A DNA stretch of 64,000 nucleotides from NCBI GenBank assembly GCA_003345545.1, contig PRDH01000076.1, forward strand, positions 37,784-101,783, given 5' to 3'. Shown here piece by piece: positions 60,305 to 64,000 of this stretch. The first letter of the stretch is position 1, and the number at the start of each line of letters is the position of its first letter. The translations under genes were made by a program, and so were the position numbers. Origin of the DNA: Candidatus Thorarchaeota archaeon. Its GTDB lineage: Archaea; Asgardarchaeota; Thorarchaeia; Thorarchaeales; Thorarchaeaceae. The notes below the pieces were generated by a model. That model did not search any database. It was not told the DNA's origin and saw only the letters and a list, made by a program, of their open reading frames with translations.

Positions 60305-61207
60305 CTATGACAGTAGCTCCATCATTCTGACACGAGTAAGGCCATCAAGGACAGTGGCCGAATAGTAAATCATCGTGTTCAGTGCCAAAACGCCATTGAG
60401 TCTTCTTAGTCGTCGCGATATGTTCTGGATGGCAAACAGGTGATCCACCATGAATACACTGAAAATCACCGGTTCTACAGCAGAGATATGGGAGTAGAAG
60501 TACTCCAATGGATATACTTCTCGTATCTCTCTGTCAATAGCCTCAGGCTGAGTTGCCTTGGAATCATATGTCAGTCTAGAAATAAACGCCATACCTTCTC
60601 CTGCGTTTGGATTCCAGACGAAAGAGAAGTCAAACGCATCACTCTCGACAAGCTCGTCGACCAGCCTTTTGACTCTTCGAGCTGTGAGCCCTGAATCCCT
60701 AGCAATATCAGAGATGCTCGCCCTTGGGTCTTCTGCTAACCATGGAAGAATCCGTAGATGCAATGGTCCCAACTTCATCTTCCTCCCAGCACTGGCTGTT
60801 GTCGGATGCACTTTGACATCAATGACGCCATCCACGGAACGAATGAAAGATGTCAATTCAAGCAAAGAAGCTGCGCCTATGTAGAACGCATGCAGGGCAA
60901 AGTCTCCAGTCGTCAAGGGAAGAAGACAAAAGATCATTGGATTGGTGCCAAGGGTCTTGAGGAGCGTGTCTTCGTCTTGGCTTCCATCCGTTTTCACTTC
61001 GACGAAGGCGAACTGGGCATCAATCATTGCAGGACGGAATGCCAGATACCACTTCCGAATGACACCGGTTTCCAGCAACTTCGCAACACGTTGCATGACG
61101 GCGTTTGAACTGATTCCTATCTTATCGGCCAAATACCTGTAGGAGTGCCGGCAATTCTGACCTAGTTCTATCCAGAGTTGCTTGTCGATAGCATCCAATC
61201 CTATCAC
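60305..61207 (-). CDS. Tandem-duplicated Lrp/AsnC-type wHTH regulator
   Basis: LDAIDKQL...NCRHSYRYLA..IGIS, and a second module ILPWLAEDPRASISDIARDSGLT. Confidence 0.85.
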   Translation of the reverse strand: MIGLDAIDKQLWIELGQNCRHSYRYLADKIGISSNAVMQRVAKLLETGVIRKWYLAFRPAMIDAQFAFVEVKTDGSQDEDTLLKTLGTNPMIFCLLPLTTGDFALHAFYIGAASLLELTSFIRSVDGVIDVKVHPTTASAGRKMKLGPLHLRILPWLAEDPRASISDIARDSGLTARRVKRLVDELVESDAFDFSFVWNPNAGEGMAFISRLTYDSKATQPEAIDREIREVYPLEYFYSHISAVEPVIFSVFMVDHLFAIQNISRRLRRLNGVLALNTMIYYSATVLDGLTRVRMMELLS

Positions 61208-61297
61208 CCTTGATGCTGTCGATATCTAGCCACGAGCTTACTATTAATCTAGACGGAAATTGGGGATAATGGCTGAGAACTCCCTGGAAAAGGACAA

Positions 61298-61323
61298 AGG
61301 ATGGAAGGAGTGCGACCAGCACA
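61298..61323. repeat. 26-bp direct repeat, copy 1 (copy 2 at 63119-63144)
   Basis: AGGATGGAAGGAGTGCGACCAGCACA versus AGGATGGAAGGAGTGCGGCCAGCACA (25/26). Confidence 0.85.
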
Positions 61324-61393: not shown

Positions 61394-63119
61394 TTGGCTG
61401 CAGAAGGGCGACAGCAACATGACTTTGGCATCACAATCGTTCTTGTCACAATTGCTCTAGTCCTATGCCTGAATCCAATCATCGCTGTTGTGAACTCAAA
61501 TGTACCAGATCCCAGCATACTTGTAGAGTTGGGTGAAGAAGTTGATGAGCCGGAGACTTTCCTTGCGCTAACGAAAGAATACACACCAAGCTCAGCCGTT
61601 ACACTTGCCAACGATACTCCCGGGCATATTGGAAGTGCCTGGAGAGGTCTTTATTCGTCGTTCTCCAACATGTCGACGTTTGAACGCTATCTGAATATAC
61701 CTTTGAGGAACATAAGCGAGGTCATCATTGGCGCATCTTTCAGGGTTCACAATGGCCCTAGATTCATTGCCATAGGAAATGTCGATCATGAAGACACCAC
61801 AGTGCTGTATGCAACCAATTCGACACTTGGTTATGGTGGCGAAAACGTGACTCTGACCCTTCGAAGACCCCCTGAGATATTCAGGGGCTATCTCTCTGGC
61901 GCCTTCATACGTACCACAATAATGAGCATCGAAATAGAAGGTGATTACAGAGATGGGATTGAGATGACCGGATTCTGGACGCAGGCGATCCTTAATGGAG
62001 CAGTCTATCCAGTAATGGTCAACATTCAACGAACAAACGGAGTCAGTCTGTTTTCGTACCCTACAACAGCAGAGATTCGTTTATCATCGTCATTCTTGCC
62101 AAGACTGACATTCGCCAGTGGCAATTTGAGTATTCACGAAATGCCTCTTACTCAGATTAATGAAACATTCCTACTACCTTCGGAAATGTACGACGTTACA
62201 TTCCGTTGGGTGACCTATTGGCTGAATTCAAGCTATTTCCATTCCGAAGAGGAAAACATCATAGTATGGCTAGTACGCTCTGTCAGATTGGACGTAAGAC
62301 TGACTCAGAATGTGCCTCGATATGGCATAGGTATGGACTTTGAAACTTTCGGCGAAGATATCATGATAGGGGATTCTCTATCGTTCTGTCTCCCCCCCCG
62401 ACAGGAACTATAGCGTCTATGTCCATGGACCTGGCTGGAGTCGAGCTCTCACCGAACTCAGTACAGGACGTAACTTGAACATCACGATTTGGGTTGATTC
62501 GAATCTGCTAAAGCTGGGTATCATCGCGCTTCCACCTGGCAGACTACTCATGATTGTGCCCTCGTTACTCGCAGTTTCCATAATAGTATTCGGGATTAGG
62601 AAATACCAAATGGACTACATCAGACTTATCCCATTCTCTTTGCTGTCCTTGAGCTATATTCTCCCTTGGATGAGCTACGAAGCTCAAGGCTATGAGCCCA
62701 AGACGGTTCCTGTCAATTACTACCTAATCGTTTCGAATGATTATTTGGGCATGGCTAGCTCCACTTCCCAGATATCTGATAGCGCGGTTCTAGTGACTCC
62801 CGTATTCTTTCTCGCCACCCCATTGATGTATTTGCTGCTTTTCTGTGCGTTATGGGGGGTTTTGCCGAACGGTAGTCTAACGGGTCTTGAGTCTAAGAAA
62901 TCTAGTCTGGTCTTCCCAATCTCGCTCTTCTTGATTCTGTTGCTAGGAGTGTTCCACATCCTAAACATCCTCGGCATATTCCGAAGATATTACGGTATGC
63001 TGTCCGTTACGCCTGGTATAGGCCTATTCGTGGCAGCTCTTGCATTAATCGTATGGATTGCCCTGCGAATACAAAGAGCGGCGCCAGCGCTACCTACTCA
63101 GACTCCTACAGATGAATGA
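61394..63119 (+). pseudogene. Secreted-domain plus multi-TM membrane protein interrupted by a +1 frameshift in a C8 run (62392-62399)
   Basis: Removing one C joins the 61394 ORF to the 62475 ORF (LPP-DRNYSVYVHG...NLNITIW), giving about 574 aa. Confidence 0.65.
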
Positions 63120-63144
63120 GGATGGAAGGAGTGCGGCCAGCACA
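63119..63144. repeat. 26-bp direct repeat, copy 2, in the vhuU 3' region
   Basis: Matches 61298-61323 at 25 of 26 positions. Confidence 0.85.
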
Positions 63145-63158
63145 CCCTTGCGGGGTGT

Positions 63159-63196
63159 GTCAGACCCGGCCCGTTAGTTTGCGGCCGTGCCTTCAT
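63159..63196 (-). promoter_or_regulatory. Eukaryote-like SECIS element of vhuU
   Basis: AUGAA-GGCACGGCC-GCAAACUAACG-GGCCGGGUC-UGAC: UGAN/NGAN core, 9-position stem with one mismatch, apical AAA. Confidence 0.75.
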
Positions 63197-63345
63197 CCAC
63201 TGCTGGTCACAAGCTCCTTCCTGACTATCTCGCGACCCTCATCGTCGACGACGACCAGATGAGCGCCGCATGATAGTCAGCAGTCATAGCACCGAACCAC
63301 CATTTCCAGGAGGTTCAGTACCCCTTCAGGGATTTCTTCTGACAT
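63193..63345 (-). CDS. vhuU: Selenocysteine-containing small subunit of the F420-non-reducing [NiFeSe] hydrogenase
   Basis: MSEEIPEGVLNLLEMVVRCYDC(TGA=U)LSCGAHLVVVDDEGREIVRKELVTSSG*. TGA at 63277-63279 sits at the first Cys position of the DPCxxCxxH motif that the upstream large subunit lacks. Confidence 0.9.
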
Positions 63346-63396
63346 TGTAGTTCACATTTCCTTCTCTGCTTTATAATACTGAGGTATGGTCATTTT

Positions 63397-64000
63397 CTAG
63401 GTCTTCACCATTGGGTCAGGTAGTTTCAGACTCTCGTGAGCCTTGTCCTCAAAGATCTGCTTTGCAGCAACCATGAGGCTCTTTTCAATCCCAGCAATGT
63501 TGTTGTTGGTAGCAACAATGAGGTTCGCCTTCACAAGCATGCCCTTGTCATCGCTGACATAGTTATGCAGTAGTGTCCCTCTTGGTGCCTCGACAATACC
63601 GACACCGTCACCGGCCTTTGGTTCAACATCTGAGAGTTTCACGTCGGTGCTCACAATCTCTGGATCTTCCAGTAGTTTCTTGATCGACTCAGCAGCTTGC
63701 ACCAGCTCCACTATTCGTGCATAGTGGTACGCAAAGGTGTGGTGTGAAGGTCTGCCAATGAGCTCTCTCATCTCCTTCAGTGCCGCATTGGCAAGAGGAG
63801 TTGCCATCTTGTCTGCAACATTGCATCGAGCAAGAGTGTTGGCTCTCCAGATGCCTTCAGGGTATCCTGCAGGCTTGTAGTAGATATGAGTGGCATAGCT
63901 ATGTTCTGATACGTGCTCTCCGTAGTACTTGGTGTAGTCCTTGGGCTCGAAGTCAGCGACAATCTTGCCATTCGGATCCATGACACGAACAGTCCCATCA
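63397..64000 (-). CDS. vhuA: F420-non-reducing [NiFe(Se)] hydrogenase large subunit, split VhuA type (5' end outside window)
   Basis: YGEHVSEHSYA, HYARIVEL, GVGIVEAPRGTLLHNY, ANLIVATNNN; stops without the C-terminal CxxC. Confidence 0.88.
   Translation of the reverse strand, partial: DGTVRVMDPNGKIVADFEPKDYTKYYGEHVSEHSYATHIYYKPAGYPEGIWRANTLARCNVADKMATPLANAALKEMRELIGRPSHHTFAYHYARIVELVQAAESIKKLLEDPEIVSTDVKLSDVEPKAGDGVGIVEAPRGTLLHNYVSDDKGMLVKANLIVATNNNIAGIEKSLMVAAKQIFEDKAHESLKLPDPMVKT

Follow-up and report, generated by a model that had tools for sequence, protein, structure and literature searches.

A predicted eukaryote-like SECIS element that includes the vhuU stop codon in its core in a Thorarchaeota archaeon

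The vhuU gene at the end of a Thorarchaeota contig carries two in-frame UGA codons, and the second of them lies within an RNA structure resembling the selenocysteine insertion sequence (SECIS) of eukaryotes. The question raised by this locus is how one mRNA could have one UGA read as selenocysteine (Sec) and another read as stop. The window, i.e., the whole stretch of DNA analyzed here (64,000 nucleotides), lies at the very end of contig C76, and the genome has a size of 2.69 Mb and 48% G+C. The 3′ RNA of vhuU is very probably a functional Sec insertion element, predicted here to be an Asgard SECIS of the eukaryote-like kind, in which the UGA of the AUGA core is the stop codon.

The vhuU gene and the selenocysteine machinery

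The vhuU coding sequence without its stop codon was located at 63196..63345 on the minus strand (50 codons, ATG at 63345, MSEE...VTSSG), and its translation is MSEEIPEGVLNLLEMVVRCYDC-U-LSCGAHLVVVDDEGREIVRKELVTSSG. Codon 23 is the in-frame UGA assigned to Sec (63279-63277, minus strand; motif RCYDC-U-LSCGAH), and the terminal in-frame UGA is found at 63195-63193 on the same strand, where the open reading frame (ORF) ends in GGA UGA (63198-63193). The distance between the two UGAs, given as about 80 nt in a preliminary description of the locus, was measured as 84 nt from first base to first base. Upstream of vhuU, a [NiFe] hydrogenase large-subunit ORF on the minus strand stops at 63397, leaving a gap of 51 bases to the vhuU ATG at 63345; the 5′ end of this ORF is clipped by the end of the contig, and its PF00374 match covers profile positions 341-463 of 508. 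The nearest named relatives of the vhuU locus were 'Candidatus Thorarchaeota archaeon' MAGs, with Promethearchaeota (Loki-type) MAGs coming next.

A Pfam search with the 50-residue VhuU product returned no match, even at E = 10. The identity of the product was settled by a phmmer search against the PDB, which matched where Pfam gave none: the product aligned with residues 373-403 of 405 of FrhA (3zfs), the extreme C-terminus of that protein, and with residues 424-453 of 473 of MvhA (5odc), and the solved 27-residue VhuU chain aligned with residues 5-30 of the product. In the phmmer alignment the in-frame UGA coincides with the first Cys of DPCxxCxxH, a motif that reads DPCLSC at this point in FrhA and MvhA. 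As judged from these alignments, the gene is a Sec-type vhuU, a separate small ORF bearing the (U/C)xxCxxH Ni-ligand motif with Sec in the first position, and its product is predicted to complete a split [NiFeSe] hydrogenase large subunit by providing the C-terminal segment with the Ni ligands. In [NiFe] hydrogenase large subunits, a maturation protease cuts off a C-terminal tail after the His. By analogy, the tail of approximately 21 residues after His29 of VhuU is probably a propeptide removed in maturation, and the 27-residue length of the solved chain is consistent with such cleavage.

A PSTK-like gene and the genes for tRNA-Sec, SepSecS, and SelB/EFsec were found together on one contig (C12). 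The tRNA-Sec (57.5 bits), SepSecS, and SelB all scored above their cut-offs, and the PSTK-like gene was under its cut-off with an E value of 5e-40. The presence of a Sec-type VhuU and of this machinery in the same genome supports the earlier proposal that one mRNA has two UGAs, for Sec and for stop. No in-frame stop was detected in SelD (inside a 743-aa open frame on C81) or in any of the four VhuD/FlpD homologues, and VhuU may be the sole selenoprotein of the genome among the families searched. The contigs carrying the Sec machinery, SelD, and the VhuD/FlpD homologues are C12, C81, C47, C69, and C15.

A four-helix RNA structure at the 3′ end of vhuU

On the minus strand, to which all coordinates of the element refer, the sequence reads ...AGU GGA UGA AGGCACGGCC GCAAACUAACG GGCCGGGUCU GAC, followed by CACCC-CGCAA-GGGUG, in agreement with the preliminary description, which had also equated the AUGA core with the vhuU stop codon. 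The element spans 63221-63124 and is larger than the region of 63141-63196 originally proposed. It is predicted to be a four-helix RNA (H0, H1, H2, and H3) of approximately 100 nt whose 5′ third belongs to the vhuU reading frame; the final 11 codons double as the 5′ strands of H0 and H1. The structure was examined with vhuU loci from 60 related genomes, including 28 Sec-type loci.

The AUGA core at 63196-63193 consists of A63196 and the stop codon (63195-63193), and the 3′ GA that completes the GA/GA quartet is located at 63161-63160, as seen from the sequence and its conservation. The core partners were G.A in 27 and A.G in 25 of the 28 orthologues. Helix H2 and its apical loop occupy 63192-63162; the strands AGGCACGGCC (63192-63183) and GGCCGGGUCU (63171-63162) face each other over 10 positions with one A.G mismatch, and the helix was recovered by RNAalifold with 8 of the 10 pairs compensated. 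The apical loop GCAAACUAACG has 11 nt (63182-63172) with AAA at loop positions 3-5. The U before the 3′ GA creates a second in-frame UGA (63162-63160), 33 nt past the stop codon; the base at this position is often G or C in the orthologues, and the second UGA is not conserved. Helix H3 (63157-63143) is the CGCAA hairpin that had been noted as a second hairpin behind the core, and it proved to be real and conserved: 95% of the cells were paired and 3 of its 5 pairs were compensated, and its covariation also holds in Loki-type and more distant sequences. H3 branches off after the 3′ GA, ahead of the 3′ strand of H1, and the core is therefore predicted to sit in a three-way junction.

The 5′ strand of H1, GUGACCAGCA (63210-63201), lies within the codons Val-Thr-Ser-Ser and pairs with UGCUGGCCGC (63142-63133), as supported by RNAalifold, covariation, and the minimum-free-energy (MFE) fold; 8 of its 10 pairs were compensated, with some of the changes at third positions of the Thr codon. 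The outer helix H0 is formed by GGAAGGAG (63221-63214), within the codons Arg-Lys-Glu, and CUCCUUCC (63131-63124). It was supported by covariation, with 91% of the cells paired and 4 of 8 pairs compensated, and appears in the MFE fold. The H0 strands GGAAGGAG (63214-63221) and CACUCCUUCC (63124-63134) are reminiscent of a Shine-Dalgarno motif and of the anti-Shine-Dalgarno end of 16S rRNA.

With the four-helix structure of 33 pairs applied to the 28 orthologues, pairing was seen in 87.7% of the cells, compared with 42-46% in controls in which the 3′ partners were slid by 1-3 columns. Compensatory changes were seen in 23 of the 33 pairs, and none of 500 shuffles matched the observed values on any of five measures. 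RNAalifold recovered H1, H2, and H3 from the 28 sequences, and 14 of their 18 pairs were compensated; the MFE fold of the window's own 109 nt contained all four helices (−49.1 kcal/mol, z = −3.1).

Two bases were invariant, the G located three bases 5′ of the core GA and the C just after the 3′ GA (63159). Together they would be suited to close a K-turn, and their invariance bars a covariation test of this pair. At the sequence level, the core would be compatible with a K-turn or k-junction, with tandem G.A/A.G pairs beside a 3-nt bulge (G-A-U), an invariant G-C closing pair, and a third helix entering on the non-bulged strand. A short lower stem adjoining the core (GYG/CRC) was also considered and was unsupported, one of its pairs being an invariant G-C and the next mostly C.A.

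A covariance model was built from 25 orthologous 3′ ends, leaving out three distant orthologues that were misaligned by MAFFT. It replaced an earlier hand-written pattern, which had given 40 loose matches in the genome, two of them convincing. The model found three matches in the 2.69-Mb genome, among which the vhuU element scored 94 bits (E 8e-22). A search of Rfam with 62900-63500 at E values up to 10 yielded six matches, with no SECIS family among them; the top match, 'skipping-rope' on the opposite strand, had 18.6 bits and was well under the cut-off. A 2024 ISME J survey (PMC11227280) reports that SECISearch3 finds nothing significant in Asgard genes. The failure of Rfam is therefore not taken as a refutation, and eukaryotic models are an unfair test of Asgard elements. 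Of the two parts of the covariance-model check proposed at the outset, the known SECIS families thus gave no match and the orthologue-built model did. Similarly, the designation of the element as a eukaryote-type SECIS is upheld by its core motifs and not by any eukaryotic covariance model, and 'eukaryote-like' is the better term.

The element shares with eukaryotic type I SECIS its 3′ location, the AUGA...GA non-Watson-Crick core, the unpaired A residues in the loop, and a lower helix; like them, it would act on a remote UGA from which it is separated by a minimal spacing. In contrast with the eukaryotic elements, its upper helix is shorter, it has an extra branch hairpin, it is partly coding, and it matches no SECIS family of Rfam. 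With the euryarchaeal vhuU and fruA SECIS it has in common the split Vhu hydrogenase gene, a position just behind the coding sequence, and a similar distance from the UGA; in Methanococcus, the SECIS can directly adjoin the coding region, and the fruA SECIS of M. maripaludis is 88 nt from the UGA. However, the core of the euryarchaeal SECIS consists of a GAA_A bulge and G-C pairs, with no overlap of an AUGA and a stop codon described there, and the GAA_A internal bulge is absent from the covariation-supported structure at vhuU. Two published surveys report that Asgard genomes have no SBP2.

The closest counterparts are Asgard elements. Mariotti et al. (2016; PMC4989117) defined the lokiSECIS as a 9-bp stem preceded by AUGA and followed by GA (AA in VhuU), with an 11-nt A-rich loop whose final base is G. 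The vhuU element has the compensated stem of approximately 9 bp and the 11-nt loop with a final G that mark a lokiSECIS, and like VhuU.1 of that report it lies at the end of vhuU, with an AUGA that abuts the stem and is the stop codon. As reported, VhuU.1 has AA after the stem and a loop starting with AAAAA, whereas GA follows the stem here and the loop starts with GCAAA; the stem here has 10 positions including one A.G, compared with approximately 9 bp in the lokiSECIS. Thorarchaeia frhA and vhuU elements with AUGA_GA cores and G[U/G]AAA loops (type I eSECIS-like) are described in PMC11227280, and the element here shares their lineage, gene family, core, and loop type, its apical loop being close to the G[U/G]AAA type given for Thorarchaeia frhA. 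The model in that survey comprises the core, the upper stem, the loop, and a short [U/C]GG_C[C/U][A/G] lower stem for frhA, whereas the present alignment supports a 10-bp H1, the branch hairpin H3, and the outer helix H0. The Loki-type loci examined here show H1 and H3. No mention of the extended H0/H1/H3 architecture was found in the portions of PMC4989117, PMC11227280, and a 2026 review available to us. What is added here is a covariation-backed fuller structure with two more helices that have one strand in the coding sequence.

Overlap of the AUGA core and the stop codon

In 26 of the 28 Sec-type loci, an A precedes a TGA stop located exactly 84 nt past the Sec codon. One of the two exceptions has a premature TAA with the AUGA element still in place, and the other, L039 (genome G042), which is Sec-type and 45% identical, has a TAA stop with the AUGA 20 nt downstream. 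A second set, obtained by scanning one genome per species, comprised 80 named loci from Thorarchaeota and Promethearchaeota MAGs and one Odinarchaeota MAG. The Sec codon was TGA in 79 of the 80 loci, and 78 of these 79 had an A-TGA stop, at 84 nt from the Sec codon in 69 loci and at 96 nt in nine; the remaining locus (L114) had a UUGA core variant. These counts speak for the finding in a check that the preliminary description had called for, namely whether orthologous vhuU genes always end in a TGA preceded by A. The only Cys-type homologue found, which has TGT at this position (L134, Odinarchaeota MAG), carries a TAA stop and lacks the SECIS structure. On the evidence of these counts, the overlap of stop codon and AUGA is not chance, nor is it obligatory, as seen from L039 and from the locus with UUGA.

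The overlap, including its proposed mechanism, is already published. The AUGA of Loki VhuU.1 is likewise its UGA stop codon, and a minimal-distance model was argued by Mariotti et al. (PMC4989117); the 2024 survey (PMC11227280) repeats the point, stating that UGA stops often overlap the AUGA. That one mRNA can hold two UGAs of opposite meaning, and that this supports a eukaryote-like SECIS with a distance rule older than the eukaryotes, were points made in 2016. The count of the overlap and the constancy of its spacing across two Asgard classes are added here.

The proposed course of events is as follows. While the Sec UGA (codon 23) occupies the A site, a distance of 58 nt separates it from the base of H0 further downstream, and the element would be fully folded. 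In this state the element could bring in EFsec together with Sec-tRNASec, whether on its own or by way of a binding protein. As the ribosome crosses the last 11 codons it would unwind H0 and then H1, and once the terminal UGA is in the A site, the G.A pairs would be blocked and the 5′ strand of H2 would be within the mRNA channel. No SECIS would be left at the terminal UGA, and the release factor would terminate translation. We infer factor recruitment, termination by unfolding, and cleavage of the VhuU tail, which, if cleaved, would serve mainly as a spacer and as RNA. The argument for melting, put forward in the preliminary description, is strengthened because the 5′ strands of H0 and H1 are also coding. 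Termination through a melted SECIS and a simple minimal-distance rule fit the present data alike and cannot be separated.

A different account, less probable but to be taken seriously, is that the overlap is a by-product of compaction: the first stop codon of the frame would be the invariant UGA of the AUGA, a UGA so close to a SECIS would always be read as stop, and the overlap would have no discriminating function. L039, a Sec-type locus that stops at TAA 20 nt ahead of its SECIS, speaks for this account, as does the retention of ACCAGCAGUGGAUGA behind cysS, where it is non-coding, so that the RNA, rather than the stop codon, would set the sequence. Mariotti et al. (PMC4989117) word the point as a distance rule. 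On the other hand, an overlap in 78 of 79 Sec-type loci with the spacing fixed at 84 or 96 nt in two Asgard classes exceeds the expectation from drift, although compaction and a stop codon that functions within the SECIS predict the same sequence data. The conservation of ACCAGCAGUGGAUGA in non-coding sequence behind cysS points to the RNA as what dictates the T-S/G-S/G-G residues at the C-terminus of VhuU.

Copies of the element behind cysS and near vhuU

The second match of the covariance model in the genome was found on contig C82 (L042, 2906-2986, plus strand, 46.5 bits). It is an intact AUGA...GA element located 13 nt past the stop codon of cysS, and there is no vhuU ORF. Copies linked to cysS in this way lie 8-33 nt after the cysS stop (L042, L046-L053, L141, L142, and L163); the arrangement was found in nine genomes first, and a sample of 30 cysS loci from across the class yielded it at 10. 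Where an element is present, the cysS stop codon is TGA, TAA, or TAG, and the downstream neighbours differ between genomes. No internal TGA was found in cysS of the nine genomes. A selenoprotein served by the cysS-linked element was sought and rejected, as cysS has no TGA and the downstream neighbours vary. In the cysS set, paired cells amounted to 85.5%, compared with 30-41% when the partners were slid; compensation was seen in 13 of 24 pairs, and H1, H2, and H3 covaried. This set was aligned to the model itself, a procedure biased towards the structure. No report of a cysS-linked SECIS-like RNA was found in the literature searched.

Because cysS, which has no Sec codon, keeps a copy, the RNA element may have a role in addition to, or in place of, Sec insertion. 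For example, the cysS copy might bind the archaeal SECIS-binding factor or EFsec and couple the expression of CysRS to selenium status. We tentatively propose, as a view that could well prove wrong, that in Thorarchaeota and Lokiarchaeia the vhuU SECIS, rather than being a simple stem-loop, forms a three-way junction of approximately 100 nt with an outer helix and a coding 5′ third, and that its paralogous copy at cysS in a subset of Thorarchaeota is a SECIS-like element put to a use other than Sec insertion. The cysS copy, if functional, would provide a handle for finding the archaeal SECIS-binding factor. The fuller structure and the cysS-linked copy might be the sole novel parts of this analysis.

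The cysS copies also bear on the idea that the structure is a general 3′-end element, for K-turn protein binding, stability, or termination, and is not specific to Sec. A covarying copy of the vhuU type behind a gene without an internal UGA, at one-third of the cysS loci examined, would suit such an element, and the orthologues have a pyrimidine/U-rich tract 3′ of the element. This idea is nevertheless improbable: in the genomes searched, model matches were confined to vhuU 3′ ends, their relics, and cysS; the Cys-type VhuU is without the element; and the same core and loop motifs stand behind every Asgard selenoprotein gene according to two published surveys.

The third model match is in the window, at 60223-60141 on the minus strand (40 bits), and corresponds to a decayed vhuU 3′ end with its SECIS. 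It has AUAA in place of AUGA and an 'LVTGGG*' remnant behind an in-frame stop, and its H2 and H3 are broken, whereas H1 and the CCUUCCAU tail are retained. The decayed copy lies downstream of an Lrp/AsnC-like ORF (61207..60305).

Occasional reading of the terminal UGA as Sec, extending VhuU by 10 residues up to the UGA at 63162-63160, is very unlikely. The next in-frame stop in this sequence is indeed the UGA formed by the 3′ GA of the core, but many orthologues have another base than U ahead of the 3′ GA, so the extension is not conserved, and there is no further downstream SECIS except the decayed copy 3 kb away. A chance hairpin adjoining the stop codon, with which the lack of an Rfam match would agree, is refuted for practical purposes by the covariation, the fixed spacing, and the E value of the model match. 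The predicted Sec insertion element that contains the stop codon is retained as the preferred reading.

A 26-bp direct repeat (25 of 26 identical) was found at 61298-61323 and 63119-63144, corresponding to the 3′ strands of H1 and H0, and in a sister genome (L013) the sequence following vhuU matches the window from 61297 downwards. Because of this repeat, and because the post-vhuU sequence of L013 resumes at 61297, we conclude that an insertion of approximately 1.8 kb immediately after the SECIS has displaced the U-rich tract. The inserted segment contains two plus-strand membrane-protein ORFs (61394-62413 and 62475-63119).

Additional copies were observed in other genomes. At L055 (genome G027, contig C24), three vhuU SECIS copies of 82-95 bits were located within 1.5 kb, at 1083-1165, 1648-1731, and 2473-2556. 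Several other genomes had weak extra copies 1-1.5 kb past vhuU, or a SECIS beside truncated vhuU remnants (G008, G012, G022, and G024).
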